Shown: positions 526 to 17,577 of the stretch, piece by piece
Numbering within the stretch: the stretch's first letter is position 1
How the letters are laid out: each line of letters opens with the position of its first letter
NCBI GenBank assembly: GCA_947252645.1
Contig: CAMXWF010000002.1
Location: forward strand, 8,632-72,631
Reading direction: 5' to 3'
Origin: an uncultured Bacteroidia bacterium
Lineage (GTDB): Bacteria; Bacteroidota; Bacteroidia; Bacteroidales; CAJPTX01
DNA: 64,000 bases
Translations under genes and position numbers: made by a program
The notes under the pieces: model-generated
Seen by the model: the letters and a program-made list of their open reading frames with translations, nothing else
Told to the model about the DNA's origin: nothing
Databases searched by the model: none

Positions 526-2736
526 ATGAGAACGCATGTACTAACCACGGCAGGAGTGCTACTTGCGCTGCTGCTCTCCACCAACGACATTGTGCTGGGG
601 CAAGCCAAGCCCAGTAGCGGAGTTGCTGTGGTAGATGGCATAACGTGGGCGTGGAAAAAGGACTTTGACATCAGCAATGCGTGTTCTATCATGCCTCAGC
701 AGGTAGACTCGGTGATACAATCGCCCATCCCTGCGCAGCTGACGATTCCCTCGCGGGTGAATGGGATGGATGTAGTTGGGCTATTGCCCGATGCGTTCCG
801 CCGCTGTGAAACGCTTGAGGAGGTGACACTGCCCCCGAATTGCGTAGAGGTGGGGTCGACAGCATTCAAGCAATGCAAGAACTTAAGGCGCGTGGTGATT
901 CCTGATGGGAGTAGAGCATTAACGATTAGCACAGAGGTGTTTGCGCTGTGTCCATCGCTCAAGGAGATTCACCTCTCCGCGTGCGTGCAAACGATCTTGG
1001 ATGGAGCGTTCAAGTCCTCAGGCCTCGAAGCGATAACCATCCCTGGCAACGCTAGTCCCTGGCGGCGCGATACGTATGACCTGCCGTACGAGGCCTTTGT
1101 AAATTGCCCAAGTTTAAAAAGCGTAGACCTGCTCACGGGGATAAAATCAATCCATCAAAATGTGTTTGCCCGGGGGACAGAATTGGAGCGCATCACGATT
1201 CCCTCAAGCGTGAAGCAGATAGGCTTCAAGGAGCCCGCCACAGGCGAGTGGGGCACCATATATGGCGGTACCTTCGATGTCACTCCCAAACGCGTGGACT
1301 TCGTAGCCGATGCTGAGATTCCGATTCTTGATTCGGCTTTTGGGCATAGGGGCGATGTAGCCACGCTCTATGTTCGCAAGGGGGAAAAGAGCAAGGTAGA
1401 AGGCAAGGCGTGGGCAAAGGCGTTCAGCAATATAGTTGAAGGCCATTTGGTGACCTTCAAGGATGGTGGTGAGGTATTTGCCGAGCAGCTCTTGAGCCCC
1501 GAGGGCAATGAGTCGGCACGCCGACCGGGCATCACCCCCTGGAAGGAGGGGAAGTACTTCAAGGGGTGGTTTGCCCACGGTGAGGCCTACGATTTCAGTA
1601 GGCCCGTGGGCAACGATCTTACGCTGGAGGCGGGTTGGGGCAATCGCGTGACGTTTGATGCTAATGGCGGCGAGTTCAAGGGGGAAAGCACACGGGTGCT
1701 AGACGATGGCGAGAAGATTACTAAGCCGGACGACCCTACGAAGGCTGGTTGTGTATTCCAGGGGTGGTACGAATCGGAGGAGGCCACGGATCCATACGAC
1801 TTCGATAAGCCAGTGAGTGGCAATGTCGGCCTGGTGGCGGTGTGGGATAAATACACCGTTACCTTCGATCCGAACGGTGGGACGCTTGCGGGCCCCGGCT
1901 CGGCCGAGGTGGCGCGAGGCGGGCACGCAGAGGCGCCGGCCGCGCCCACCAAGGGTGAGTGCCAATTTCTCGGATGGGCAAAGGCCGGCGCAATTGACCT
2001 GTACCAGTTTGATGCCACGCCCGTCAACCGTGATATTACGCTTGTGGCGAGGTGGGATAAATACACCGTCACCTTTGACCCGAACGGGGGCGCCCCAGTG
2101 CCCGCGCAGCAGGCGGTGGGGGATGGTCAGATGGCGCAGCGCCCTGACGAACCGACTAAGGAGGGAGGCTACCGGGTCAAGTATTGGACAACGGAAGGGG
2201 CCAGTGGGCAGTCGATGTTCAATTTCATGACTCGTGTGACGACCGACTTAACGCTTACCGCGGTGTGGGTAAAGACCTTCGAGGTGCAATTTGACTGCGA
2301 TGGCGGAACGCCGGACCCAGGCACATCCATTGTAGACATCAACACGCCCGTCAAGGTGCCAGTGCCGCTGGTCAAATTGGGGTTCAACTTCAAGGGGTGG
2401 GCCCTCGATGGGAAGGACTACGATTTTAGCCGGCCTATAACACAAAACATCACGCTGAGGGCGATATGGGAGAAGCCCGACGCCGTGGAGAGCCAGCTGC
2501 TGGCAAAGACCACGGTGGTGCGCAACCCTGTGGGGGACGTGCTGGAGATTCAACACGTGGCGGCGGCCGAACGGCTGGAGGTGTATAGCCTTTTGGGCGT
2601 GCCGGTGCATCGGCAGGCACTGCACGGTGAGGATTACGTAGCGGTGGCGACTAACGGATGGCCCGATGGCGTTTACCTTGTGCGGGTTGTGGCGCGTGAT
2701 GGCCAGCGGATTCTGAAAATAGTTGTACGCAGGTAA
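526..2736 (+). CDS. Secreted BspA-type leucine-rich-repeat protein with Listeria-Bacteroides repeats and a T9SS C-terminal sorting domain
   Basis: 736-aa ORF with a signal peptide (MRTHVLTTAGVLLALLLS). LRR units are visible (CETLEEVTLPPN, CKNLRRVVIPDG, CPSLKEIHLSAC, CPSLKSVDLLTG). It has several ~70-aa modules of the form VTFDxNGG...GW, including WDKYTVTFDPNGG twice. The C-terminus VYSLLGVPV...GVYLVRVVARDGQRILKIVVRR is typical of Por/T9SS sorting domains. Confidence 0.9.
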   Translation: MRTHVLTTAGVLLALLLSTNDIVLGQAKPSSGVAVVDGITWAWKKDFDISNACSIMPQQVDSVIQSPIPAQLTIPSRVNGMDVVGLLPDAFRRCETLEEVTLPPNCVEVGSTAFKQCKNLRRVVIPDGSRALTISTEVFALCPSLKEIHLSACVQTILDGAFKSSGLEAITIPGNASPWRRDTYDLPYEAFVNCPSLKSVDLLTGIKSIHQNVFARGTELERITIPSSVKQIGFKEPATGEWGTIYGGTFDVTPKRVDFVADAEIPILDSAFGHRGDVATLYVRKGEKSKVEGKAWAKAFSNIVEGHLVTFKDGGEVFAEQLLSPEGNESARRPGITPWKEGKYFKGWFAHGEAYDFSRPVGNDLTLEAGWGNRVTFDANGGEFKGESTRVLDDGEKITKPDDPTKAGCVFQGWYESEEATDPYDFDKPVSGNVGLVAVWDKYTVTFDPNGGTLAGPGSAEVARGGHAEAPAAPTKGECQFLGWAKAGAIDLYQFDATPVNRDITLVARWDKYTVTFDPNGGAPVPAQQAVGDGQMAQRPDEPTKEGGYRVKYWTTEGASGQSMFNFMTRVTTDLTLTAVWVKTFEVQFDCDGGTPDPGTSIVDINTPVKVPVPLVKLGFNFKGWALDGKDYDFSRPITQNITLRAIWEKPDAVESQLLAKTTVVRNPVGDVLEIQHVAAAERLEVYSLLGVPVHRQALHGEDYVAVATNGWPDGVYLVRVVARDGQRILKIVVRR

Positions 2737-3001: not shown

Positions 3002-5365
3002 ATGACCATGAAAATTCATGTGGTTACCGCGGCCGTATTGCTGCTTGCGCTGCTGTGCGGTGCAGGTGAAAAGGTGTCGGGGCAGCATAGCTGGATGCCC
3101 CTTAATGCCCCTGTTGTGGAGATAGATGGGATTAGATGGGCAGTCCAGGAGCTCCCGGACAAGGGGACGTGCTGGATCTGGCCGGAAGTGCAAAAAGATC
3201 CCAATAGCCCTACTGGGAATGGTCTCGTCCGAAAGGCAAAGATGCCTAAGCACGTAATCATACCCTCAGAGGTTGAGGTAGAGCTGCCCAAAGAGGGCAA
3301 GGTGAAACTGCGCGTCCTAACTACCTTCTGGTCGGCGTTTGAGGGTTGCGATGAGCTGGAGGAGGTGACTATCCCAGAGAGTTTTACCGAGATAAGTGGC
3401 CACTCCTTTAAAAAGTGTAAGAATCTAAGGAAGGTCCACATAGGGCGGTTGCAAAAAATCAGAATCGGAGAAAATGCTTTCAGAGGGTGTACAAGCCTTG
3501 CATCAATAGATCTGCCCTTTGGGACCTTGTCAATCAAATCTGGAGCTTTTGATGGATCGGGCCTCACATCTATAGCAATTCCAGGTACAGTAGATACGAT
3601 ATACACATTTGCTTTTGAAAACTGTACCGCACTGAAAGAGGTCTATCTAATGCACGGAGTGAGAAACATACAACAGGGTGCATTTTCCACTTACGGCAAC
3701 CTGGATGCGATCACCATACCATCCAGCGTGAAGACGATTGGCAGTGAAGATTTTATAAATGGTGGGAGGGCAGGCTCTGTTGTTGGCGAAAGTGGAATCA
3801 AAGCAGTGTACCTCCTTGCCGATATGGATAATGTGGAGCATTCTGTTCGCCCATTTAGCGATGTGTCCACAGGTTTCGAGCTGTATGTGCATGAGGGGGT
3901 AAAAGACAAGATAAAGAGCGCGGATTGGGCTGCAGGGTTGGATATCAAAGAGTGCTATAAGGTGACTTTCAAGGATGGCGATGAGGTTTTTTACGAGCAG
4001 CTGGTGCCTGTTGATGCCCCTGAGAAGAAGGCCAAGACGCCCCCGTGCACCCCAGCGAACAAGGAGCGTAAGTTCGTCAACTGGGTCTTTGAAGGGCAAG
4101 AGTACCAATTCTCTGCTAAGGTGACGAAAGACATCACGCTGCAGGCGAAGTATGAGGGCAAATCGAGAGTGACATTCGATGCCAACGGCGGGACGCTCGG
4201 AGGGAAAACCGCGTGGGAGACCGAAACAGAAGATAAGGTGGAGAACCCAGGGACGCCGGAGCATCCAGATAAGCGAGCGTTTAAGTATTGGGTGGAAAAA
4301 GGGTCGAGCACTGCGTTTGATTTTACCAAAACGGTGGCGCGCGATATTGCGCTGCAGGCGTTGTGGGCGACGTATAAGGTGACGCTGAATCCCAATGGCG
4401 GTGTGCTGGCCGATGGGGTGGATAGGGAGCAGGTTCTAGCTTTTAACCTGCCGACCAGTAAGCCAGCGGACCCCACGAAGAAGGTGCCCGCTAGAAAGGC
4501 GGTCGAGGAGCAGACTGCGCCTGGCGCGACAGAGGATGCACAGTTTTTAGGTTGGGCGAAGATGTCGGCATCTGGGATCTATGAATTTGGCAAGGTGGAG
4601 ACCAGTGACGTTACGTTGACGGCGCAATGGGACAAATACATCCTGACGTTTGATGCCGATGGCGGTTCGTTTGCCTGCCCCTCTATGCAAGTAGCGGCCG
4701 GCGAAGCACCAGATATCCTGAAGGCAGATCCGCCTACAAAGGAGGGATACCGGTTCGTACAATGGACGTACAATGGCGAGCCATTTGTTTTCTCTGCCCA
4801 TCCAATGCACAGTGATATTACGGTTAAAGCAGAGTACCGGATAGTGCCCAGGATCGCCAAGATTGAGGTTGTGGGCAAGGGAGTACTGGAAGAGATGGTC
4901 AAGGTGGTTGAAAAATCGGTTGAGGAGGGTAAACCGGTAACCATTACGGTGGACGACAAGGTGAAGGATCGCCTGGCGAAGATAGAAGTTATCTACCGTG
5001 AGAACAATGAGGATAAGACGATAGAGGTAGACCCCAAAGCTGACCCTCTTACGTTTTTGATGCCTGCTGCGGTGGTGACCCTGAGGGTGTCGTTTTCTGA
5101 CGCAGTGAGCCCTGTAGAGAGCCGACTGCTGGCGAAGTCGTCGGTTGTGGCGAATCCGGTTAGCCAAGTGCTCGTGCTTCAAAATGTAGCGGAGGCCGAG
5201 CGCATAGAGGTTTATAGCCTTCTAGGCGTGCTACAGCATGCGCAGGCGGTACGGGGTGCCGACCAAGTGGCAGTGGATGTACGCGACTGGGCAAACGGGG
5301 TGTATCTTGTACGGCTTGTGGCGCGCGATGGGGATAGGTCGCTGCGGGTGGTAGTGAGTCGATAG
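3002..5365 (+). CDS. Paralogous BspA-type LRR / Listeria-Bacteroides-repeat protein with a T9SS C-terminal domain
   Basis: 787-aa ORF with a signal peptide ([20 protein letters not shown]). LRR units are visible (CDELEEVTIPES, CKNLRKVHIGRL, CTSLASIDLPFG, CTALKEVYLMHG). It has VTFDANGG, VTLNPNGG and LTFDADGG repeat modules. The C-terminus VYSLLGVLQ...GVYLVRLVARDGDRSLRVVVSR aligns with the tail of the upstream gene. Confidence 0.9.
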   Translation: MTMKIHVVTAAVLLLALLCGAGEKVSGQHSWMPLNAPVVEIDGIRWAVQELPDKGTCWIWPEVQKDPNSPTGNGLVRKAKMPKHVIIPSEVEVELPKEGKVKLRVLTTFWSAFEGCDELEEVTIPESFTEISGHSFKKCKNLRKVHIGRLQKIRIGENAFRGCTSLASIDLPFGTLSIKSGAFDGSGLTSIAIPGTVDTIYTFAFENCTALKEVYLMHGVRNIQQGAFSTYGNLDAITIPSSVKTIGSEDFINGGRAGSVVGESGIKAVYLLADMDNVEHSVRPFSDVSTGFELYVHEGVKDKIKSADWAAGLDIKECYKVTFKDGDEVFYEQLVPVDAPEKKAKTPPCTPANKERKFVNWVFEGQEYQFSAKVTKDITLQAKYEGKSRVTFDANGGTLGGKTAWETETEDKVENPGTPEHPDKRAFKYWVEKGSSTAFDFTKTVARDIALQALWATYKVTLNPNGGVLADGVDREQVLAFNLPTSKPADPTKKVPARKAVEEQTAPGATEDAQFLGWAKMSASGIYEFGKVETSDVTLTAQWDKYILTFDADGGSFACPSMQVAAGEAPDILKADPPTKEGYRFVQWTYNGEPFVFSAHPMHSDITVKAEYRIVPRIAKIEVVGKGVLEEMVKVVEKSVEEGKPVTITVDDKVKDRLAKIEVIYRENNEDKTIEVDPKADPLTFLMPAAVVTLRVSFSDAVSPVESRLLAKSSVVANPVSQVLVLQNVAEAERIEVYSLLGVLQHAQAVRGADQVAVDVRDWANGVYLVRLVARDGDRSLRVVVSR

Positions 5366-5398
5366 ATAGTTTTTGCCCCAGCGCCATTAGGGGAATCG

Positions 5399-5428
5399 GG
5401 GAGGCCTTGTCTGGGCCTCCCTATTTTT
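5399..5428 (+). terminator. Rho-independent terminator of the LRR gene pair
   Basis: The 8-bp stem gggaggcc / ggcctccc is followed by tattttta, 34 nt after the stop at 5365. Confidence 0.7.
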
Positions 5429-5514: not shown

Positions 5515-5936
5515 TTCGCCCGCGTGCTCAGGCCGTGCATTCCATCGCTGGTATTAGGCCCTGTGGTTGGAGGAAGATCGTTGAGAATCCAGACCATTGC
5601 CCGCTGGGCTGAAACGTAGGGTGCCCTGTAGGGTGCAACTAGCGAGGGATAGAGCGGGTGACCATCAGGTAGGCAAAAGGACTTCACAGGCGTTGCTCGC
5701 GTTGGGATCCACAGTTTGAGGCATTGTAGGCAGGTGAATGGCATTGGGGGGCGTTTACCCCGGTAGGCGGTGTGTAGCCGTGCGCAGCGCATCATGGGTG
5801 TGTGGCCAATGGCCCGTGGCCCTGTGGCTTTGCGTTCCCCAGTGATTTTACCTCTAGGCCTCAAACCCTACGCATTGTTGCGGCTGGTCGATATGTGGAG
5901 AGCTGTTTATGCAGTGAGCATCGTTATGGGAGCAAA

Positions 5937-5972
5937 ATAGGGGGCGTGCAGAGTGTACTGCACGCCCCCTAT
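5937..5972. terminator. Bidirectional hairpin terminator; ends the minus-strand TonB-receptor operon
   Basis: Perfect 15-bp inverted repeat atagggggcgtgcag / ctgcacgccccctat with a 6-nt loop. It is flanked by aaaa on the left and ttta on the right, 56 nt downstream of the stop at 6028. Confidence 0.8.
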
Positions 5973-6027
5973 TTTAACCTAGGATCTACTAAGGCCAGAC
6001 GATAGGAAGGTTACGTCCCGCTTCCCC

Positions 6028-7104
6028 CTATTTCTGCTTGGTCAAAGAAGCAGGTTTAATCTGGAAGTCAAGCGAGGAATTGTTGTTATCTACATAGTTT
6101 CTACCATCATGCCTACGGATAACAGCTTTTCCTGCATATTCCTTAGCGTTTTCTCTCTCATATTTTTTGACGCCAGTGCATTTTGCATCTAACGTTTTTG
6201 GCATATACAACCTTACAAATTCCTGGGTGGGGCATAGATTGACGGCATCTACTATCAACTCATACGGGACAGCCAGGCAGAAAAAGAATCTTGGGTGATT
6301 GTGCTGCTTATTTTTGGCGGCACTATACATGATTTCCTCTTTGAATTCCCACTTTTTCAATTTTGTTTCATCAAAATTCGCCAAGGCGAGCATAGATTCA
6401 GCAAAGGGGAAGGACTCTAAGATCTTTGGATAAAGAGCAAATACATCGTCGTCTTGTAAGAAGACGCACGTTAATGAGGGGACTGGAGTTTTTGGTTTTT
6501 CTTCTATGTATGCACTGGAGATTTGTTGCTCAGACCATATTTGGAAATTGGCCTGGGACAAGTCGTAGGAATTTTCAGCCCTTCCGAGTAGGCAGTACTC
6601 CTCATTGCCTATTTTTTTCGTGTGGTCGACTGCCACGAGCGCCACGGTGATGGAGGCTCCTGGCGCAATGGGGTAGTCCTTACCCGACCCTGGAAAGCGG
6701 TAGACAGCCGAAGCCGGGAAGTAGTTCTCGAGCGCCTTGATGTCTTCTTTTTCGAGTTTATAATGCAAACTGCTGGAGATGGCCGCTTGCATGAGGACCA
6801 TACCATCGATGTACTTTACCTCGAGAGAAGGATTGCAGATCTTGACGTAGTAGTCGTAGCCATAGCACTGCACTTTCTTGTCGCTATATATCACTGGGGC
6901 CCCTGCATAGGCGATCTCTTCAATCAGCAGATGGTCGACATTATGCTTTTTCTTTTCCTCTTCGACTGTGGCTGGGTTCTGATCCCATTTTTTCTCTTTG
7001 CCGCATCCTACAAGCGTAAGCGCAAGCAGAAAGACAAGAGCGAACTTACGCGATGTGAGTAAACTCTTGATTTTCATTTTCTTGAGTTGTTTATCGGTTG
7101 ACAA
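6028..7104 (-). CDS. Uncharacterised lipoprotein, last gene of the TonB-receptor operon, with a possible LTD-like beta-sandwich at the N-terminus
   Basis: 358-aa ORF with a lipobox (LALTLVGC; alternative start MKIKSLL at 7077). The segment HLLIEEIAYAGAPV...YYVKICNPSLEVKYIDGMVL resembles lamin-tail-like modules. The gene is AT-rich (25/60 GC hand-counted at 6061-6120). Confidence 0.75.
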   Translation of the reverse strand: MSTDKQLKKMKIKSLLTSRKFALVFLLALTLVGCGKEKKWDQNPATVEEEKKKHNVDHLLIEEIAYAGAPVIYSDKKVQCYGYDYYVKICNPSLEVKYIDGMVLMQAAISSSLHYKLEKEDIKALENYFPASAVYRFPGSGKDYPIAPGASITVALVAVDHTKKIGNEEYCLLGRAENSYDLSQANFQIWSEQQISSAYIEEKPKTPVPSLTCVFLQDDDVFALYPKILESFPFAESMLALANFDETKLKKWEFKEEIMYSAAKNKQHNHPRFFFCLAVPYELIVDAVNLCPTQEFVRLYMPKTLDAKCTGVKKYERENAKEYAGKAVIRRHDGRNYVDNNNSSLDFQIKPASLTKQK

Positions 7105-7146
7105 TTAGACTGAATGCACGAATTCCACCGAGCATGTTGCGTAATC

Positions 7147-8436
7147 CTACAGGAACCACGCGCCAAACCCCGTTGAGGCGCCCTCATTGTGGGTTATGAG
7201 ATTTTGCACGGCATCGTAGGCCTCTTGGTGGGTAATCCCGATCTCTCGGCCAAGGTGGAAAAAGTACGGATCCCTTGAGTCGATATCGTTGAAGTTGCAT
7301 TCATCGGAATTCGTGTAGACCTTGATGGGGATATTCATGCGGAAGAGTTCATTAAAAGCTTGGTCTGGTTTATAGAACGGTGAACATGCTTTACGATGGC
7401 TTCCGTCTTCGCGTGCAGTAAAGGGGACTACCTGTTTTTTCCCGTCAGGGCATTTCATCACGCGGATAGCTAGGAAGAACTGCGGCAACAGGCCTGTACC
7501 CTTGCTGTAGGTATACCCATATTCGTTTAGCGGCCAGCTGCCATTGGGGTCGATGGCCTCTTCTTGGTAATCGAAGCGGATATGACCTTTTAGCCCGACG
7601 CAATCGGTGTCCTCGGCCTGCGCCCGCTGGTAGTCATACTTGGTAAAGGGAGGGAAAAGCCGGATGTTGAACAGCTCTTGGACTCCATCGGCCATATCGT
7701 CGTCGAGCCAGGTGTCGCGGTATACGTAGGTGCACATAGCTGGGGTTGCCTCGCTGCGCTGCTCGAAAGAAGGCTTGTCCGAGAAATATTTTGATGGGAT
7801 GGGCTTCTCCTCCTCCATGGGCTTTTCGCCCCGATACCGCACATCCATCACCTCGTAGGGTTGACCTGCCGTGTCGAGATCGGAAATGGAGAAAAAGATT
7901 TGGTATTCCGAGGAGTGTTCCAAGATTTTATCGTTAATCCTCTCCCCATTTTTGTCGAAGAAGTACAGGCAAACGCCCCATAGCTTTGGGCGTCCACCAA
8001 TTATCCGTATATAGTCTGGCCCCTCTTTCTTCTTCGATGCTTCCAGCGCGGTGACGGTACTCTTCTTGTCGACCTTTACCTTTATGCCTGCGCTTGTGTT
8101 GTGAATCACGACGAACTCCTCCTGCTTCCAGGGCGCATTGGGGTAGACGAAATTGCCATGCAGCTTGTCCCCTCCGTGCGGGTGGCCTTCCTTAAACATG
8201 ATAAGGCATGTGGCCCAATCGTTGAAGGCACCCCCTTGGTCGGGGTTTGGGATGGACTCCGTTACTTTTGGGGCTTCAAATAGGTCGGCCGTTGTTTGGG
8301 GCATTTTTTTCTGTAGCCGCGGGTTCTCCTCATCCGGCACAGACATGTCGAAGAATAAGAACTTCTTGCACCCCCCCATGGTCATTATGGTTGCCAGAGC
8401 CAGGCACACCAGCACCAAACGCCTCACCTCTTTCAT
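7147..8436 (-). CDS. Uncharacterised lipoprotein with a His-rich motif
   Basis: I place the start at MKEVRRLVLVCLALATIMTMGGCKK (ATG at 8436) rather than the longer ORF start at 8508, which would overlap the upstream gene. It has a lipobox (MTMGGC) and the motif GHPHGGDKLHGN. It shares motifs with the 8468-9724 product. Confidence 0.75.
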   Translation of the reverse strand: MKEVRRLVLVCLALATIMTMGGCKKFLFFDMSVPDEENPRLQKKMPQTTADLFEAPKVTESIPNPDQGGAFNDWATCLIMFKEGHPHGGDKLHGNFVYPNAPWKQEEFVVIHNTSAGIKVKVDKKSTVTALEASKKKEGPDYIRIIGGRPKLWGVCLYFFDKNGERINDKILEHSSEYQIFFSISDLDTAGQPYEVMDVRYRGEKPMEEEKPIPSKYFSDKPSFEQRSEATPAMCTYVYRDTWLDDDMADGVQELFNIRLFPPFTKYDYQRAQAEDTDCVGLKGHIRFDYQEEAIDPNGSWPLNEYGYTYSKGTGLLPQFFLAIRVMKCPDGKKQVVPFTAREDGSHRKACSPFYKPDQAFNELFRMNIPIKVYTNSDECNFNDIDSRDPYFFHLGREIGITHQEAYDAVQNLITHNEGASTGFGAWFL

Positions 8437-8467
8437 ATCTTCTTCTCCTATGTAGCTATGGCCAACG

Positions 8468-9724
8468 CTAGAAATTAATTTGCGGATACATCCTAAAGTA
8501 CTCGCCATCGAGCTGGATAATTTTGCGTACCTCAGGTAAATCTTCGGGTTTTAGGTTGTAGAAGCGCTCTATATCCTTTAGGCATTTTTCAACGCCATCG
8601 TTCATGTTTCCAATCACTCTGAACGGTAGGGGATAGTCGATGTCGAAGCTGTTCCAAGCGGTGGAAATTTCATTGTAGCCATGCGCTTCTCCGTAGGAGT
8701 TGTATTTTCCCCCTTCGGTGAGCACATGGCAAATGCACACGCGCATCTGGAACGCCATTTCAGGGTGCTTAAAGGTGATGATGCCCTTAAACCCGAGTGC
8801 GTCGTAGGGGTCGCTTTCATCGAGGCTTCGGTTTTTTCGTAGCCTTACCACAGCCTGCCCAGCTCGCTGCCGCCCCAATTCGTCAAGCCCATCCACCGGT
8901 TTTCCCAACTCCTTTTCGATGGGGTCTGTATCGCGGTACTCGTAGGAGAACACCTTCTCCACATCCTGATTGAGGATCTGAATGCCCCTAGTTTTACAAA
9001 GCTTGTATGTTTTGCCTTCGAAGGTTTGCGGCTTAGTGGCCTCGATGGACATCGCATTCTTCACCGCTAATTCTGCCAGCTTACTGCTGTAGCGCAGTGT
9101 ATTTGGTACGTGGTCTTCGGGCACATAGATAGCGGTTGAGGCGCCGTTAGTCAACGGCTGGGGGGCACCACCGGCGAATGTGAATTCATCGTAGTAGAGG
9201 CTATCGTACGGTGTCATGGGGTAGGTGCCCTGTTGGCCAGAGAGTGCATATGACTGCAAGGAGAAGAAATGCTGGTGGACGGTTAAGGTGGAGCCCTCAA
9301 TATCCTTGGGGTCGTAGCGTCCGAACTGGTGGTTGATGAGTTGATTGTTCACATCGTAGTAGCGCAGCTCGAGGGCGTATTGGAAGTCAGGGCTGAGGAT
9401 GACATCGAAGTGCTTGCGTTTCGAGACGATCGTGACTTTCCCCTCGTCGTCTTTTGCCAGCTCAAGCTCCTGGTAGATAATAGGGCAGGGGAGCACTTTC
9501 GAGGTGATGTCGTAGGCACTATAGGTTTCCCCTTCGCCATTCTTTACGGCTATGCGCAGTATGGCCTGCACGCTGTATATTTGCTCGTGGCCCTTAACGA
9601 CGCGCTCTATCGTTGCCTCTGGGGCCTTCACAATTGACCCTAGCACGTAGGCGAGCTTGTCATCGTTGCAGCTGGGCATTGCGAAGGTGAGAGCAGCCAG
9701 GTATAACCAGTATTTAGCTTTCAT
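8468..9724 (-). CDS. Uncharacterised lipoprotein, probably surface-exposed
   Basis: 418-aa ORF with a signal and lipobox (LAALTFAMPSC). The Cys is followed by acidic NDDK, which resembles the Bacteroidota lipoprotein export signal. Its start is 7 nt downstream of the TonB-receptor stop. Confidence 0.8.
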   Translation of the reverse strand: MKAKYWLYLAALTFAMPSCNDDKLAYVLGSIVKAPEATIERVVKGHEQIYSVQAILRIAVKNGEGETYSAYDITSKVLPCPIIYQELELAKDDEGKVTIVSKRKHFDVILSPDFQYALELRYYDVNNQLINHQFGRYDPKDIEGSTLTVHQHFFSLQSYALSGQQGTYPMTPYDSLYYDEFTFAGGAPQPLTNGASTAIYVPEDHVPNTLRYSSKLAELAVKNAMSIEATKPQTFEGKTYKLCKTRGIQILNQDVEKVFSYEYRDTDPIEKELGKPVDGLDELGRQRAGQAVVRLRKNRSLDESDPYDALGFKGIITFKHPEMAFQMRVCICHVLTEGGKYNSYGEAHGYNEISTAWNSFDIDYPLPFRVIGNMNDGVEKCLKDIERFYNLKPEDLPEVRKIIQLDGEYFRMYPQINF

Positions 9725-9731
9725 CGTCTTG

Positions 9732-12101
9732 CTAGAATTTCAGTATTGTACGAAACGTGACCTGGGCCCCGCGCGCATGGGCGTAGTACCTGAACCGGTC
9801 AGTGTACTCTTTGTAGAGAGCGTTGAGGATATTCTCTCCCATCACGATGAACGTCAGCGAGCGGTTGCCCACAAAGTCCCATGTCACCTCTGCCGAAGCG
9901 TGCAGGAGGAAGTAGGCATCGGGTGACTCGGGCACTAGGTCCTTTGAGGGGTCGAAGCGGCGCTGTTTGGTTACATAGCTGCTTTCCAGCGCGAATGCAG
10001 AGTGCCACTGCATTTTTTTACCCCACGAGATCTGATAGTTTGCCCCCAGTCTGTAGCGATCCGAAGGCATGAAGGGCATCCAGTTGCCTTTGGATAGGTT
10101 TTTTGCGTTTATCCATTCGCCGGTAAACTTTATGGAGAGCCCTTCGTAGGGGATGCCGGTAATGGCGATGTCGCCACCAAAGAACCGTGCGTTGTCCTGG
10201 CCGTAGATAAACTTTGGGAACTTGCCCGAGGGGTGGTTGTGGAAACGGTTTTTCCCCTCGCCTATATTATCGTAGATAAAATTGCCGATGTACTGGAAGA
10301 ACATGCTTGGCTCGACCACTATCCACGCGTTGTGGTACTTTGCCCCGAGGACTGCCTTATAGCCCATTTCCGACTTAAGGTTCGGGTTACCCACCACCCA
10401 ATAGGTGCCGTGGTGTAGCCCGGTGGCGTACATTTCATTGACATCCGGCGGGCGCCATGACCACCCTATGTTTACCCTCGCCTCTATGTTTTTCGTTATC
10501 TGGTAGTAGGTAGCCAGCATGCCCGTGAAATTCCGGTAGAGCCTAAAGCCTCCGTAGTACGTGGCATTTGACGATATCGAGGAATACCCATTTACGTCCA
10601 TGGCTCGCAGGTCGTAGCGCATGCCCAGGGAGCACTGCACTGGGCCGAATTTTATTTTATGGAATCCAAAGATCCCCATCGTAAGTGCTGCGTAGTTGGG
10701 TATGAAAGCGGGGGTTTTAGTGCCGGGCACGTTGTAGTTGTACTGATACATGCCAGAGAGTCCCAGCTGCGACTCCATGCCAAGCAGGCCCCACTTGCCA
10801 TTCCACACGAGTTCTCCCGTCACGGAGGAGAGCTGTAGATCTTGCACGGGGAGCAGGCTGTACTTTGCCTGCTTGCGGTTTTCGAACTCCTGTCGTAGGT
10901 TCTCTTGGTAGGCCAGGGAAAGGTCGAGCGTGTGGTCGTTGGTCAATCGGAACTTAAAATCTGCCTTCCCCATGATGTGCTGCGTTTGCTGGAATGGGGG
11001 GATAATCTTGTAGCTAAAGGGTTGAATGGTATTTTCATCGGGCCTCCCAGCTAGGAAGCGCATCATTAGCTGATCGACATCGGAGACTTTGCTTGCGTAG
11101 TAAATCCCGCTCCGCGATGTGTAGATACTCCCATAGAGGGTTGCGGTCAGCCATTTGTAGCGCACGCCGGTCAGCACCGACATGCTGATATTTTTGAATC
11201 CGGTGTTGTTGAGCACATACTGCGCCGTGCGGTAATCGCCTGCCTGCTGGTACATGCCGTGCACGCGCAGCCCTACGGCCTTCCAGCCCAACTCGACCAT
11301 ACCCGTGCCGTTGTAGCCCCGGTCGTTGGTCGTGTAGCCTAGGTTCACCGAGCCGTTTACCTTGAGCTTATCATGGCCATACGGCAGCGGAGCCTGCGAG
11401 AAGATCACCACGCCTCCGATGGCGCCATAGCCGTATCGCACGGCCTCTGCACCCTTGACCACCTCAACCACATTGGAGCCCGTGTGGTCGATTTCTGGAG
11501 CGTGATCCTCCCCCCAGGACTGGCTCTCCAGCTTCACCCCGTTGTTAATCATCAGGATACGGCTGCTATGCATCCCCTGGATAACCGGTTTGTAAATTGT
11601 GCCGCCCGTGCTGATGGTACTGACGCCGGGAATCTGTTCGAGCATCTGCCCTAACGACTTCGAAGAGTTCCTTTCTATCACTTTGGCCGTAATTGCGGCT
11701 GCCTGCTGTAGCTTAGAGGTGGCGCGCTGTTGCGCTGTTACCCTCACCTCCTCTACATCGAAGCTTGTAGGGGTTATCTTCACCAAGATTCTCCAGTCCT
11801 TCGTGGTGGAAAATGTGGCTTCATTCACCTCGTCATAGCCTAACACCTTCACCGTTAGCTTAACGGTTGGGCCATCGTAGGGTACCTCGCACATCCCGTT
11901 ACCATCCGTGAGGTACCACTTCTCCGCCACCTTTATCGTGGCCGCCACGACCGGTGCGCCCGTTTCCGCATCCACTACCAGGACTGGTATCTTTTTTACG
12001 CCCTGCGCTTTTGCTTTAGGGATGCCAACAAATGCTACGATGCAGGTGCAAAGGCACACCACAAGCAAAAAGAACCTGCTTCCTTTCATTCGACCACGCA
12101 A
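9732..12101 (-). CDS. TonB-dependent outer-membrane receptor with an N-terminal carboxypeptidase-regulatory-like domain
   Basis: 789-aa ORF with a signal peptide. It has an N-terminal CarboxypepD_reg-like segment (IPVLVVDAETGAPVVAATIKV...GNGMCEV), a plug region (VEEVRVTA...SLGQMLEQIPGV) and a beta-barrel ending in an aromatic residue (FRTILKF). Confidence 0.9.
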   Translation of the reverse strand: MRGRMKGSRFFLLVVCLCTCIVAFVGIPKAKAQGVKKIPVLVVDAETGAPVVAATIKVAEKWYLTDGNGMCEVPYDGPTVKLTVKVLGYDEVNEATFSTTKDWRILVKITPTSFDVEEVRVTAQQRATSKLQQAAAITAKVIERNSSKSLGQMLEQIPGVSTISTGGTIYKPVIQGMHSSRILMINNGVKLESQSWGEDHAPEIDHTGSNVVEVVKGAEAVRYGYGAIGGVVIFSQAPLPYGHDKLKVNGSVNLGYTTNDRGYNGTGMVELGWKAVGLRVHGMYQQAGDYRTAQYVLNNTGFKNISMSVLTGVRYKWLTATLYGSIYTSRSGIYYASKVSDVDQLMMRFLAGRPDENTIQPFSYKIIPPFQQTQHIMGKADFKFRLTNDHTLDLSLAYQENLRQEFENRKQAKYSLLPVQDLQLSSVTGELVWNGKWGLLGMESQLGLSGMYQYNYNVPGTKTPAFIPNYAALTMGIFGFHKIKFGPVQCSLGMRYDLRAMDVNGYSSISSNATYYGGFRLYRNFTGMLATYYQITKNIEARVNIGWSWRPPDVNEMYATGLHHGTYWVVGNPNLKSEMGYKAVLGAKYHNAWIVVEPSMFFQYIGNFIYDNIGEGKNRFHNHPSGKFPKFIYGQDNARFFGGDIAITGIPYEGLSIKFTGEWINAKNLSKGNWMPFMPSDRYRLGANYQISWGKKMQWHSAFALESSYVTKQRRFDPSKDLVPESPDAYFLLHASAEVTWDFVGNRSLTFIVMGENILNALYKEYTDRFRYYAHARGAQVTFRTILKF

Positions 12102-12366
12102 TTGTTTGATGTTGATAAGCCAGTTTTACGGCCAGGTATCTTAATTGCTTCGGCTTGATTTAGACAGAGTACGGTCAAGACGAACGCTGGCGCGAAATAA
12201 GGTATCCTGACCGTCAATTCCAAATTTCCGTAAAAACTAGGCCATCTTCTGAAGTCTATTCAGTCCGCGCAGCAATTGCCCATCGCCTAGCAGGGCATCT
12301 CCATGATGTCGGAAATTTGCAATCTGCGGGGAAATCGTGTTTCAGGATTTTCCAAAGAAATAGTGC

Positions 12367-12374
12367 TAACTTTG
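12367..12374 (+). promoter_or_regulatory. Candidate -7 promoter box (TAacTTTG) upstream of the UbiD-family gene
   Basis: The sequence taactttg matches TAnnTTTG only 7 nt before the annotated ATG at 12382. This implies either a near-leaderless mRNA or a downstream true start such as the GTG of KVLG. Confidence 0.3.
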
Positions 12375-12381
12375 GGCTAGT

Positions 12382-14271: not shown

Positions 14272-17200
14272 ATGGTTCAATCTACTGGGAGGCTCGTGGG
14301 CGTAGCGGGGCTACTCGTACTGCTGCTTTTGCCCTGTGCGGGTGAGGCGCGCACGGCAGCGGATCGGGACACTGCCATACGGCTAGATTATTACGATTTG
14401 ACCGATCAGCTCCCCGGCGGGGAGAGCCTCTGCATTCTAGAGGACAGCATAGGGATGATGTGGATCGGCACGCGTTCGGGGCTGGTGCGCTACGACGCGG
14501 AGGAGTTCCACGTGTACTACCCTTCCCCGGAGGATTCGACGGCCATGGCGGAGGCCATGGTGATGGCCATTTGCGAGCGGCGGTTCGGGGAGATATGGGT
14601 GGTGAATCCGGGCAACGTGGCTTGCCTGAACACGCATACGGGCAAGTTTAAGAACTACCCGATGCCCGACACCCTTGAGCAGTACCGTAGTCTCTATGTG
14701 AGCTGGGGAATGGTGGTGGATCGGCAGGGCGAGCTGTGGGTGTTTGGGGAACACTGCGTGGGCCGTTACGACCAGGGGCAGGACAGGTTTGAATTCCGGC
14801 CGCATGAGTTGGGGCATCCTGGGGTGTCGGCGGTGTACCAGATCGAGCCGCAGCTGGGGCAGGGGGATGGCGTGTGGGTAAACATCAATGGGTCGCTCTA
14901 CCTTTTCCACACGAGCAGTTGGACCTTCGATCCCTTGCCTCAGATGGTCCCCCAGCTTGGGTTGACCAACGCGACACGGGTCAAGAGCCTTAGCATGGAG
15001 TCCAACGGCTCGCTGTGGATCTCTGCGGGGCAGGGGCTATTTCTCCGCCGCCCCACGAGCGATACGCTCCAGCCCATCCCCCTGCCTACCGTGGGGACGG
15101 GAGGCAAGCGGGTAAGCCCCGTGGCTGTGAGGGTAGACGGTGAGGGAAGCATTTGGTGTGCCATGAATGTGGGCCTGGGGCGTTTTTCCCTGTCCGATTC
15201 CACTTGGATGCTGGCCAACAAGTTCTACGGTGGGCGAGATTTACGGATGAACGATACGCTCACGCTATGCGTTTCGCGCGGGGGAGACTTGTGGATTCCT
15301 ATCCGCAACGGCCTGGGGCGAATGGGCTATCGCCCAAGGTACTTTCAGGAGCTGGCCTACGCGGCCAATGGCGACTATTTTTTCAATGGTATGCGCACGT
15401 CGTCGCTACTAACTCGCGACGATAGCATCCTCTGGGTGGGGAGCTGGGATAGGGGGATCACGCGCTTCAATCTCTACACTGGGGCGCGGACGTTTTACGG
15501 ACTTGATGTCCCTTCGCATCCCTTGCCGTCGAAGGAGGTGTATCGGTTGGCATTCCTCCACGATAGCACCATGGTAGCCTCCCTCCAGGGACATTTCTAC
15601 TACTACGACCCTGCTCGGGATCAATGGAAGGACTACTTCGTTTCCCAGGGGCTTCCAGGGGTGTCCCGGCAGCTCAAGAAGCTGTTCCTGTTGACTTTTT
15701 ACCAGCAGTCCAACGGGGACATATGGTTTGGTACATCGGTGGGCCTGTACCATTATAGCGACTCCGCACGCCAGTTGTCTGCTGTGACGGGGCTAGGCCA
15801 CGTGCAGATATTTTCTGTGACCGATGATGGTCGGGGCACGCTATGGCTTGGATCTAACTACGGCATCTACTCCTATCATCCTGGCCGCAATGAGCTGTTG
15901 CACTTTCCAATTTCTGGCCGCGATACGCTGACCTCCCAGGCCTATTCCTACATTGCGGCTTGTAGCCAACGTGGGGCCAGCGGTATCGTGTGGTTTGGCA
16001 CCAACGTGGGGCTCTACGCTCTGCCCCCCGGGGCTAGGCGGCCGCAGCTGGTGCGTGAGCGGATCAACCAGCACAGTAATCAGATCTACTCCCTGCAGGA
16101 GGATCGGCTTGGGATGCTTTGGTTAGGCACGGAGTGCGGCCTGGCGGTTTACGACCCCCTGGTCGACTCGCTGGTGCTGTTCGATGCCCACGATGGACTG
16201 GTGGCTCAGGATTACAGTCTCAATGCCTACTGCCGCTCCCCCAATGGGCACATGTATTTTGGCGGTCTCGATGGAGTGGTACATTTCGACGGGACGCAGC
16301 TCCACCCAGCCCCGCCGAAGCCGCTTGTTATGGTGCATGAATGCTTTGGCCTGAGCGAAGGCCCAGCCGAGCTAATCCCCCTGCGCAGCGACAATCTTCT
16401 GGAAGTAGAGGCTAAGTACAGCACAGTGACTCTTTCCTTGGCGATGCTCCGCTTTGACCGGAGGGCCAGGCCAGTCTACGAGTATAGGGTACCCGGGATC
16501 GCCGATCAATGGATGCCGGTGTTCTCGGGGCATCTTGTGACGCTGGGAGGGCTGCCGGAGGGGATGTTTACCTTTGAGTATCGCTGCCCGGTGGGGCAAG
16601 GGAGCTATGCCTACGGCACGCCGCTCAAGATAGTGATCCGGAAGCCGCTTTTGGTCAGTAGGGGGGCGAAGGTCATCTACTTGTTGCTGGGGTTGCTGGC
16701 GGTCTCCATCTACGCAGTGAGCCGCTGGATTGCCTACCATGAGCTCAAGGAGGCGGTGACGGTGAAGGAGCAAGCTGTGCAGGAGGCCACGCGCCAGAAG
16801 TGGCTTGTGGAGGAACGCAACCAGGAGCTGCGCTCCTCTCTGCAATATGCCTATCTGATGCAGAAGCAGCTGGTGGCTGGCCCGGCGGTCCTCGCCAACT
16901 ACCTCCAGGATTACTTCTTGCTTTTTCGCCCGCGCGACATCGTGGGGGGCGATTTTTGCTGGGCAGCACGCCATGCACAGACCATCCTGCTAGCCGTGGT
17001 GGACTGCACCGGCCACGGGGCCCCGGCGGCTATGATGTCGGTCATGGCCACTATATTCTTGGATAGGATAGTCAACCAACTGCATGAGTACAGCCCCAAG
17101 GCCATCCTCGCCGTCCTCAATACGATGATTTTGGAACAGTGGAGGCGGGATGCCCAGGGCGATCTCTACAACGATGGTCTTGACATCACCCTCTGTGCTA

Positions 17201-17577
17201 TCCATACCGACACCCAACGGGTGACCGTAGCTGGGGCTTTCCAGAAGCTCTACCACATAGGGGCCGCAGGCGTGCGCACCTATTCTGGGGATAGGATTTT
17301 CACCGGGGGCACCCCGCACGCCGTTTACCGGGAGGAGAGCTTTATCTACGCGCCCGACGACATGCTCTACCTCCTGAGCGATGGCTTTGCTGACCAGTTT
17401 GGGGGCAATTCGCACAAGCGCTATGGGGCAGACAACTTGCAGCAGTTGCTCCTAACGGTCTCGGTGCTGCCCACGGCGCAGCAGCTCAAGCAGCTGGAGA
17501 CCACGCTCAGCAGCTGGCAGGCTGGGGGAGCGCAAGTCGATGACATTACCGTGCTTGGAGTGCGGTGTAGGTTCTAG
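14272..17577 (+). CDS. Periplasmic beta-propeller / Y_Y_Y sensor fused to a cytoplasmic SpoIIE (PP2C-type) phosphatase
   Basis: 1101-aa ORF with a signal peptide. It has many Reg_prop-like blades (MWIGTRSGLVRYD, LWVFGEHCVGRYD, IWFGTSVGLYHYS, LWLGSNYGIYSY, VWFGTNVGLYAL, LWLGTECGLAVYD) and a Y_Y_Y region (YEYRVPG...FTFEYRC). A TM helix (VIYLLLGLLAVSIYAV) and a coiled coil follow. SpoIIE motifs are GGDFCW, DCTGHGAPAAMMS, DGFADQFGG and DDITVLGVR. Confidence 0.9.
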   Translation: MVQSTGRLVGVAGLLVLLLLPCAGEARTAADRDTAIRLDYYDLTDQLPGGESLCILEDSIGMMWIGTRSGLVRYDAEEFHVYYPSPEDSTAMAEAMVMAICERRFGEIWVVNPGNVACLNTHTGKFKNYPMPDTLEQYRSLYVSWGMVVDRQGELWVFGEHCVGRYDQGQDRFEFRPHELGHPGVSAVYQIEPQLGQGDGVWVNINGSLYLFHTSSWTFDPLPQMVPQLGLTNATRVKSLSMESNGSLWISAGQGLFLRRPTSDTLQPIPLPTVGTGGKRVSPVAVRVDGEGSIWCAMNVGLGRFSLSDSTWMLANKFYGGRDLRMNDTLTLCVSRGGDLWIPIRNGLGRMGYRPRYFQELAYAANGDYFFNGMRTSSLLTRDDSILWVGSWDRGITRFNLYTGARTFYGLDVPSHPLPSKEVYRLAFLHDSTMVASLQGHFYYYDPARDQWKDYFVSQGLPGVSRQLKKLFLLTFYQQSNGDIWFGTSVGLYHYSDSARQLSAVTGLGHVQIFSVTDDGRGTLWLGSNYGIYSYHPGRNELLHFPISGRDTLTSQAYSYIAACSQRGASGIVWFGTNVGLYALPPGARRPQLVRERINQHSNQIYSLQEDRLGMLWLGTECGLAVYDPLVDSLVLFDAHDGLVAQDYSLNAYCRSPNGHMYFGGLDGVVHFDGTQLHPAPPKPLVMVHECFGLSEGPAELIPLRSDNLLEVEAKYSTVTLSLAMLRFDRRARPVYEYRVPGIADQWMPVFSGHLVTLGGLPEGMFTFEYRCPVGQGSYAYGTPLKIVIRKPLLVSRGAKVIYLLLGLLAVSIYAVSRWIAYHELKEAVTVKEQAVQEATRQKWLVEERNQELRSSLQYAYLMQKQLVAGPAVLANYLQDYFLLFRPRDIVGGDFCWAARHAQTILLAVVDCTGHGAPAAMMSVMATIFLDRIVNQLHEYSPKAILAVLNTMILEQWRRDAQGDLYNDGLDITLCAIHTDTQRVTVAGAFQKLYHIGAAGVRTYSGDRIFTGGTPHAVYREESFIYAPDDMLYLLSDGFADQFGGNSHKRYGADNLQQLLLTVSVLPTAQQLKQLETTLSSWQAGGAQVDDITVLGVRCRF

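Follow-up and report, generated by a model that had tools for sequence, protein, structure and literature searches.

TonB-dependent transporters that work with lipoproteins other than SusD are already known in Bacteroidota, and lipoproteins of the DUF4876 family are among the proposed partners. Here we compare such systems with a four-gene locus in a 64,000-nt stretch of DNA from an uncultured Bacteroidia bacterium (contig CAMXWF010000002.1); this whole stretch is referred to as the window. The locus, here called the quartet, encodes a TonB-dependent receptor and three lipoproteins, LP1, LP2 and LP3. A first-pass annotation had read it as a receptor operon carrying three unrecognised lipoproteins in place of a SusD-type partner. 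We find that the quartet is widely conserved, and consider it rather likely that it is an outer-membrane uptake machine in which several lipoproteins form a complex to capture a metal or metal chelate.

Price, Deutschbauer and Arkin (bioRxiv 10.1101/2023.03.17.533168) placed DUF4876 (BT1938, BT3632) among six candidate lid families of non-SusC transporters. Their evidence consisted of multimer predictions at the outer face, a proximity kept in 59–81 genera, and a surface-exposed homologue in Bacteroides fragilis; the paper gives no phenotype for DUF4876. DUF4625 is another lid family proposed there for TonB transporters, and its member BT1419 is cofit with its receptor. In the iron-depleted cultures of Lewis and Gui (PMC10434189), PG1019-22 of Porphyromonas gingivalis was up 20–214-fold, and in Bacteroides thetaiotaomicron BT3625-33 was up 38–128-fold and BT1933-39 was up 3.5–7.4-fold. 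A 2026 paper (PMC13096392) describes PG1019/PG1020 as a still uncharacterised transport system, induced with the hmu genes under haem limitation in a hemH mutant.

Results

Gene organisation

The four open reading frames (ORFs) of the quartet are all intact and all on the minus strand within 12101–6028, in the order receptor, LP1, LP2, LP3, as the first-pass annotation had it. The features of the locus are as follows.

12101–9732, minus strand: TonB-dependent receptor, 789 amino acids (aa); likely ATG at 12089
9724–8468, minus strand: LP1 lipoprotein, 418 aa; lipobox Cys19, followed by N-D-D-K
8439–7147, minus strand: LP2 lipoprotein, 430 aa from an internal ATG (longest ORF 453 aa); Cys24
8152–8193, minus strand: codons of the LP2 His motif (residues 83–96), K-E-G-H-P-H-G-G-D-K-L-H-G-N; predicted beta-hairpin
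7104–6028, minus strand: LP3, DUF4876 lipoprotein, 358 aa from TTG; more likely 349 aa from ATG at 7077
5934–5975, minus strand: terminator-type hairpin, from sequence reading and RNAfold
12102–12381, minus strand: intergenic region between the receptor gene and a divergent UbiD-family gene; presumed promoter

The spacers between the genes are 7, 28 and 42 nt. The first and last of these agree with the earlier values, while the 31 nt given for the second had counted in the stop codon. The operon ends in a hairpin with perfect 18-nt arms (5975–5958 and 5951–5934) and the loop TACACT, for which RNAfold calculates a free energy of −37.4 kcal/mol with 19 pairs. A hairpin had thus been correctly recognised here, but its stem is 18–19 bp and not 15 bp, and the interval 5937–5972 that had been assigned to it is only the G+C core. 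The arms carry an A-tract and a T-tract, from which the hairpin is potentially bidirectional. The tight spacers and the single strong terminal hairpin point to one operon.

Conservation of the quartet

The sample comprised 80 loci from a scan of one genome per species and three more from exact protein look-up, or 83 in total. In essentially all of these with a long enough contig, receptor, LP1, LP2 and DUF4876 are found in the same order and orientation. The quartet is spread over about 80 host-associated Bacteroidales species, including Porphyromonas bennonis, Porphyromonas somerae, Porphyromonas catoniae, Porphyromonas pasteri and Porphyromonas cangingivalis, Bacteroides heparinolyticus and Bacteroides pyogenes, and members of Prevotella, Hoylesella, Segatella, Hallella, Alloprevotella and Cryptobacteroides. 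The recurrence of four genes in the same order is not chance. The first-pass annotation had staked its reading on co-conservation of the lipoproteins with the receptor, and this is what is observed.

Some lineages have two DUF4876 paralogues. A shorter form, with receptor, LP1-like and LP2-like genes and no DUF4876, is found in three other loci, one of them in a Flavobacteriaceae metagenome-assembled genome. Since this trio occurs without DUF4876, the conserved core is the receptor together with the paralogue pair.

The receptor

The first protein of the quartet scores 57.5 bits with the Plug model PF07715 (cut-off 23.9) and 91.8 bits with the barrel model PF00593 (cut-off 27). Besides the plug and a 22-strand-type barrel, the protein carries a signal peptide and the TonB-box-like sequence DVEEVRVTA. 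It is a TonB-dependent receptor, as had been proposed; the CarboxypepD_reg N-domain also attributed to it is a sub-threshold match (CarbopepD_reg_2, residues 41–121, 17.6 bits vs a cut-off of 32.2, E 0.004). SusC/RagA TIGR04056 is absent from the NCBIfam matches of the receptor at E ≤ 1, and LP1–LP3 have no SusD Pfam match. By these models the receptor is not SusC-type, and there is no SusC/RagA–SusD pair. The earlier description of a non-SusD accessory set is upheld: this is a non-SusC, non-SusD TonB-dependent transporter operon with dedicated lipoproteins that are tightly co-conserved with the receptor.

What might this receptor carry? Its nearest characterised relatives are haem receptors, ZnuD and OprC. 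The closest sequence in the PDB is ZnuD (4rdr, E 2e-17), although it aligns with no more than residues 110–295, in the N-terminal part of the receptor, and OprC is second. The receptor homologues in 82 loci are 50–60% identical, and the barrel region contains a partly conserved H621-x-H623.

The best NCBIfam model is TonB-hemin TIGR01785, and this match raises the first alternative to a general metal system, namely haem or haemoprotein acquisition. LP2 would then be a hemophore-like haem binder with His ligation, delivering to a haem-type receptor as in HmuY/HmuR. However, the TonB-hemin score of 138.7 bits is under half of the cut-off of 316.85. Haem receptors are marked by FRAP and NPNL boxes with His between them. 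The window receptor does contain such a signature, WRPP...HH...NPNL, but only WRPPD is kept among 81 orthologues. Since NPNL and the inter-box HH are not kept, the signature was dropped as evidence. Furthermore, HmuY (PF14064) has no Pfam match in LP1, LP2, LP3 or 84 members of the LP1/LP2 family, and the His-rich linkers and tracts described below are more typical of divalent-cation capture. The neighbouring genes also bear on this alternative, and we return to it with them.

LP1 and LP2 are paralogues

Neither LP1 nor LP2 has a sequence match in Pfam, NCBIfam or the PDB, whether searched alone, as a 42-member profile or member by member. There are 155 homologues of LP1 and 139 of LP2, all called hypothetical or lipoprotein. 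When the two families were aligned with hhalign, they matched with a probability of 96.6% and E 7e-10, and the LP2 profile reaches the LP1-type protein P0358 at E 6e-5. Both have G-H on the first strand, Y-x-Y-R-D-T and G-[LF]-K-G, and the hallmarks of LP1 are K-G-H-E-Q, H-Q-H-F-F, Y-x-Y-R-D-T-D-P and G-F-K-G. At the level of sequence, LP1 and LP2 are distant paralogues of one unannotated family. The family is small, with 62 representative clusters among 1.84 billion proteins, six of them full length, in the search with LP2.

The AlphaFold2 models are confident, with a predicted local distance difference test score (pLDDT) of 91.2 and a predicted template modelling score (pTM) of 0.85 for LP1, and 88.7 and 0.86, respectively, for LP2. 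The predicted structures are large and rich in beta-sandwich. The Foldseek comparison of both models with the PDB that the first-pass annotation had called for gave no neighbour (best E 0.06 for LP2 and 0.01 for LP1, with TM-scores <0.2). A new fold is not established by these models.

Many glycan binders are likewise large and beta-sandwich-rich, and this resemblance suggests that the cargo might be a non-metal nutrient such as a vitamin, peptide, nucleoside or small glycan. In that case the His motif of LP2 would have a structural or catalytic role, and the lipoproteins would be binders of the SusE/F or BtuG kind. There is precedent for this, in that some alternate-lid transporters carry cobamides and possibly lysine (bioRxiv 10.1101/2023.03.17.533168). 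However, the receptor is not SusC-type, and the conserved block contains no SusD, glycoside hydrolase or peptidase. A riboswitch search of the window operon and eight related loci found none, of the cobalamin or TPP type or otherwise, and the DUF4876 relatives respond to iron. We regard a non-metal cargo as improbable.

The His motif of LP2

The LP2 family has the motif K-E-G-H-x-H-G-x-x-K-x-H-G-N. The first-pass annotation had singled out a His-rich motif in the middle protein, and it proves to be a true family motif: E84, G85, H86, H88, H94 and N96 are invariant in 42 homologues of 42–60% identity. In the LP2 model, DSSP places the motif on a strand (75–87), a turn, and a second strand (93–95). 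The His-x-His...His arrangement in this model is a candidate tri-His ligand site. LP1-type proteins lack the motif and have K-G-H-E-Q and H-Q-H-F-F in its place. It is kept in the remote relatives P0318, P0323, P0329 and P0335, of 340–383 aa.

A further remote homologue, the metagenomic protein P0362 (441 aa), has a DUF4625 domain (E 6.5e-32), an HHEHEHEH linker, and then an LP2-type domain with G-H-x-H-G...H-x-N. It is a natural fusion joining two receptor-associated lipoprotein families.

The hints of a metal site are thus the invariant tri-His motif, its persistence in remote homologues, and the small His-rich membrane ORFs of some loci described below. A second alternative is piracy of zinc or another divalent cation, in which the LP2 tri-His would capture Zn2+ at the surface and pass it to a ZnuD-like receptor. 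An H-x-H and a third His on adjacent strands of a predicted beta-hairpin would resemble classic Zn sites, and the HHEHEHEH linker of P0362, the H-x-H tracts of the small upstream ORFs, H621-x-H623 of the receptor and its solved relatives ZnuD and OprC all agree with such a role. On the other hand, the likeness to ZnuD does not extend beyond the N-terminal part of the receptor, and NF038289, the ZnuD model of NCBIfam, gives only 89.4 bits with a cut-off of 950. No Zur box, znuABC or zinc-paralogue genes are found nearby, and the expression data for DUF4876 loci concern iron or haem only. We judge zinc piracy to be unlikely.

LP3 belongs to DUF4876

LP3 matches DUF4876 (PF16215) over residues 147–350 with 74 bits vs a cut-off of 27.9 (E 2e-20), and the 'putative lipoprotein' 4q1z of the PDB with E 7.6e-11. 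A comparison of LP3 with LP2 showed no relationship. Both in the window and in related loci, LP3 and the receptor are encoded in one operon. Since it passes the DUF4876 threshold, one of the 'three unrecognised lipoproteins' belongs to a named family. The statement that no family could be matched therefore holds for LP1 and LP2 and fails for LP3, and the three are not a set of like, unrecognised partners but a pair of paralogues and a member of a different, named family.

Localisation signals

Lipoboxes are present in all three accessory proteins (AMPSC in LP1, TMGGC in LP2 and LVGC in LP3), as had been reported, and LP1 does run C-N-D-D-K from the lipidated Cys. Its family mostly has C-S-D-D, C-S-D-E or C-S-N-D, and these N-termini fit a surface-export signal. 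Of the three, only LP1 has the acidic surface-export signal. The LP2 family begins C-x-x-F-[VI]-F-G, with at least two acidic residues in only 5 of 37 members, and LP3 begins C-G-K-E-K-K-W-D. BtuG2 is surface-exposed without a canonical export signal (bioRxiv 10.1101/2023.03.17.533168).

The N-termini of the LP2 family would agree with another explanation, that the lipoproteins are not partners of the receptor and are merely co-transcribed with it, for example as periplasmic or outer-membrane-vesicle cargo with an independent role. BT1798, a lipoprotein adjacent to a TonB-dependent transporter, gave no confident contacts (bioRxiv 10.1101/2023.03.17.533168). However, the order and adjacency of the genes are strictly kept across Bacteroidales families and in the Flavobacteriaceae genome, an LP2-like domain is fused to DUF4625, a receptor-linked lipoprotein family, and LP1 has a good export signal. 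Mere co-transcription is therefore very improbable.

Horizontal transfer

In a Prevotella version of the locus (L062–L082), the quartet is joined by a second DUF4876 paralogue and an LRR_5 gene, and in many cases by a C10 peptidase gene. Its hosts are Prevotella pallens, bivia, amnii, corporis, brunnea and ihumii, Hoylesella timonensis and Hallella. Clustering at 90% identity puts the LP2 proteins of P. pallens, Segatella oris and P. bivia together. The extra DUF4876 paralogue is 88–95% identical in 12 of the 14 other L062–L082 loci and about 70% identical in the remaining two. This near-identity across species and genera indicates recent horizontal transfer, and such copies across Prevotellaceae genera suggest selection as well as transfer. 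The five-gene 'TonB-dependent transport system' PIOMA14_I_0804-08 of P. intermedia, which is iron-induced 5–33-fold, may be a counterpart of this version, with which it agrees in gene count.

In the window, the G+C content is 0.541 for the receptor, 0.515 for LP1, 0.524 for LP2 and 0.448 for LP3, compared with 0.573 for the whole window and about 0.60 for the upstream UbiD-family and regulator genes, and the operon lies 4–13 G+C points below these upstream neighbours. LP3 is its lowest-G+C gene (0.53 at third codon positions). The drift toward AT along the operon noted in the first reading is real, and its count of 25/60 G+C at 6061–6120 is exact. A G+C content below that of the window and the upstream genes fits acquired DNA, and suggests that the operon was gained by transfer in this genome too.

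The upstream region

Many related loci have a palindrome, AAATACC-N8-GGTATTT, about 20–30 nt upstream of a Bacteroidetes −7 box (TAnnTTTG) and before the receptor gene. With at most one mismatch, it occurs in 33 of 78 upstream regions (23.6 kb), and there are 124 matches in all loci (1.12 Mb). The following sites are given by locus.

L080, 2782–2803: palindrome
L044, 2991–3012: palindrome
L003, 4260–4281: palindrome
L072, 927–948: palindrome
L001, 5403 and 3678: palindromes

The sequence of P. pallens at the candidate regulator site is AAATACCTATTTTTGGGTATG. The same palindrome also stands before other genes: a HmuY-LRR_5 gene in L001, an LRR_5 gene in L025 and, in L044, the gene of an ABC exporter. 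The gene types that bear it resemble the published iron stimulon, which is a hint of a shared starvation regulator. From its sequence and position, the palindrome is probably the operator of a regulator, possibly one of metal starvation.

The corresponding region of the window, 12102–12381, where Fur- or Zur-type boxes had been anticipated, has neither of these, nor a TAnnTTTG box, an AATACC-N8-GGTATT palindrome or an inverted repeat. A metagenome scan for AAATACC-N8-GGTATTT as a means to define a regulon returned 120 stretches, mostly environmental and probably due to chance; 21 of 121 matches have a nearby −7 box, and three of these stand before receptor-related or metal-efflux-related genes. 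These matches are too weak to name a regulon. The regulator genes that adjoin the locus in two hosts, TetR in P. pallens and AraC-type in Bacteroides sp. AN502, were set aside, as neither is a conserved part of the locus.

Neighbouring genes

Some loci open with a small ORF of about 95–133 aa that contains H-x-H tracts, has (R/H)(A/S)PP at its C-terminus and is predicted to form a single membrane helix. The His tracts are, for example, THSHVVNGVIISHSHPFKGEHEHS, or HYH plus C-x-I-C. The small His-rich ORFs are listed by locus.

L010, 2497–2898
L012, 2581–2895
L013, 2572–2883
L014, 2696–3061
L019, 1990–2370
L020, 2131–2520
L084, 4041–4328
L086, 4074–4457

These ORFs have no Pfam or NCBIfam match, and the window has no such ORF. 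An 'HYC_CC_PP' family was considered for them and not confirmed. In the metagenome locus L105, a similar small H-Y-C/C-C protein is encoded behind the same palindrome, before a CzcA-like resistance-nodulation-division pump.

Convergent to the operon in the window are two tandem genes, at 526–2736 (+) and 3002–5365 (+), for BspA-type LRR_5 proteins with Listeria-Bacteroides repeats; their matches to C-terminal sorting domains of the type IX secretion system are weak and sub-threshold. A second terminator-like hairpin at 5398–5422 (+), GGGGAGGCC...GGCCTCCC followed by a T-run, ends the convergent LRR_5 gene, so the convergent units have separate terminators about 500 nt apart. LRR_5 genes flank 16 of 86 loci, mostly in the Prevotella island, and there is one HmuY-LRR_5 fusion (L001, 2161–3594). 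On the other side, two genes upstream of the operon and on the opposite strand, a gene at 14272–17577 (+) encodes a protein of 1101 aa that combines two-component-regulator propeller repeats with a SpoIIE/PP2C phosphatase domain at the C-terminus.

Part of this neighbourhood speaks for haem acquisition. In P. cangingivalis, the HmuY-LRR_5 gene adjoins the quartet and bears the same palindrome, BspA-type LRR_5 genes flank the window operon, and a C10 peptidase gene follows the quartet in the Prevotella island. C10 is the family of the haemoglobin-degrading interpain A. When haem or iron is limiting, DUF4876–receptor pairs also change together with the hmu genes. However, these neighbourhood links are few and partly come from one transferred island, and with the receptor results given above they leave haem acquisition somewhat unlikely.

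Discussion

We favour the reading of the quartet as an uptake machine in which the ligand is most likely a metal ion or metal chelate, either iron/haem or zinc. The receptor would be a TonB-dependent transporter with a 22-strand-type barrel, from the branch of haem, zinc and copper receptors. The lipoproteins would lie on or at the extracellular face of its barrel, where HmuY, BtuG and XusB are precedents and where DUF4876 itself is predicted to be. LP2 would hold the ligand through its invariant His-x-His...His site. LP1 may be a degenerate paralogue with a classic surface-export signal that serves as partner or scaffold, and the DUF4876 lipoprotein may form a partial lid. The ligand would then be drawn through the barrel by TonB energy. 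Such a machine could serve metal uptake under host-imposed metal starvation.

Several points weigh against this proposal. Every substrate-specific NCBIfam model is far below threshold on the receptor, and the NPNL box and inter-box His of haem receptors are not conserved among the orthologues. The lack of an acidic export signal in the LP2 family makes the surface location of LP2 uncertain. The upstream region of the operon in the window shows no operator, Fur box or Zur box, and the iron-regulated DUF4876–receptor loci PG1019-22, BT3625-33 and BT1933-39 are without LP1 and LP2. Finally, we found no experiment on the quartet in the literature.

A bolder version of the uptake machine can be put forward tentatively, though it is somewhat less likely than not to be right. 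LP1 and LP2 would represent a family of receptor-associated lipoproteins with a new fold, LP2 would bind the ligand by its tri-His, and the pair would act with or without a DUF4876 lid. The whole would be a system of metal piracy not described before, found in Bacteroidales of the mouth, vagina and gut, horizontally spread in Prevotella and controlled in many species by a regulator at AATACC-N8-GGTATT.

The non-SusC TonB transporters and alternate lids of Bacteroidota are barely catalogued, and the quartet is missing from the survey based on B. thetaiotaomicron. LP1/LP2 is a good target for structural and biochemical work, since the family is compact, its models are confident, none of its relatives has been solved and its tri-His motif is invariant. 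Clinically relevant carriers of the quartet are Prevotella bivia, P. amnii, P. denticola, Hoylesella timonensis, Porphyromonas somerae, P. bennonis, P. catoniae and Bacteroides pyogenes; how these organisms obtain metals under nutritional immunity is little understood. Their starvation regulator may be easier to locate with the conserved palindrome as a lead.

Comparison with known systems

How does the quartet compare with the systems already described? The DUF4876–receptor pairs BT1938/BT1939, BT3631-32/BT3633 and PG1019/PG1020 likewise have a non-SusC receptor followed by a DUF4876 lipoprotein on the same strand. They are restricted to Bacteroidota and uncharacterised, and relatives are induced by iron or haem starvation. 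The quartet differs from them in having two extra, paralogous lipoproteins between the receptor and DUF4876, and a pair of the LP1/LP2 type can accompany a receptor without DUF4876. The DUF4625–receptor pair BT1419/BT1420 also involves a candidate lid family, to which an LP2-type domain is joined in P0362, but the window proteins have no DUF4625 domain.

HmuY–HmuR of Porphyromonas, Bacteroides and Prevotella resembles the quartet in pairing a surface lipoprotein with a TonB receptor from the haem-like branch. This system and the DUF4876 loci share one starvation stimulon, and a HmuY-LRR gene neighbours the quartet in one species. However, LP1–LP3 lack a HmuY domain and are predicted to fold differently, and the quartet receptor falls below the haem-family threshold and does not conserve the signature His. 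The closest solved receptor relatives by sequence are ZnuD (Neisseria, Acinetobacter) and the copper receptor OprC, which make His-based metal capture plausible for the quartet, although only the N-terminal part of the receptor shows the likeness and the model score falls far short of the cut-off. ZnuD and OprC are not known to act with dedicated lipoproteins.

BtuG–BtuB, XusB–XusA and SusD–SusC follow the same logic as that proposed for the quartet, in which a surface lipoprotein catches the ligand for a TonB transporter. They differ in that their lipoprotein families are unrelated to those of the quartet, which has three lipoproteins instead of one and a receptor that is not SusC-type. What is new in the quartet is the LP1/LP2 family, the layout of this family as a pair of paralogues, the links of the family to DUF4876 and to DUF4625, the three-lipoprotein architecture and the invariant tri-His motif.

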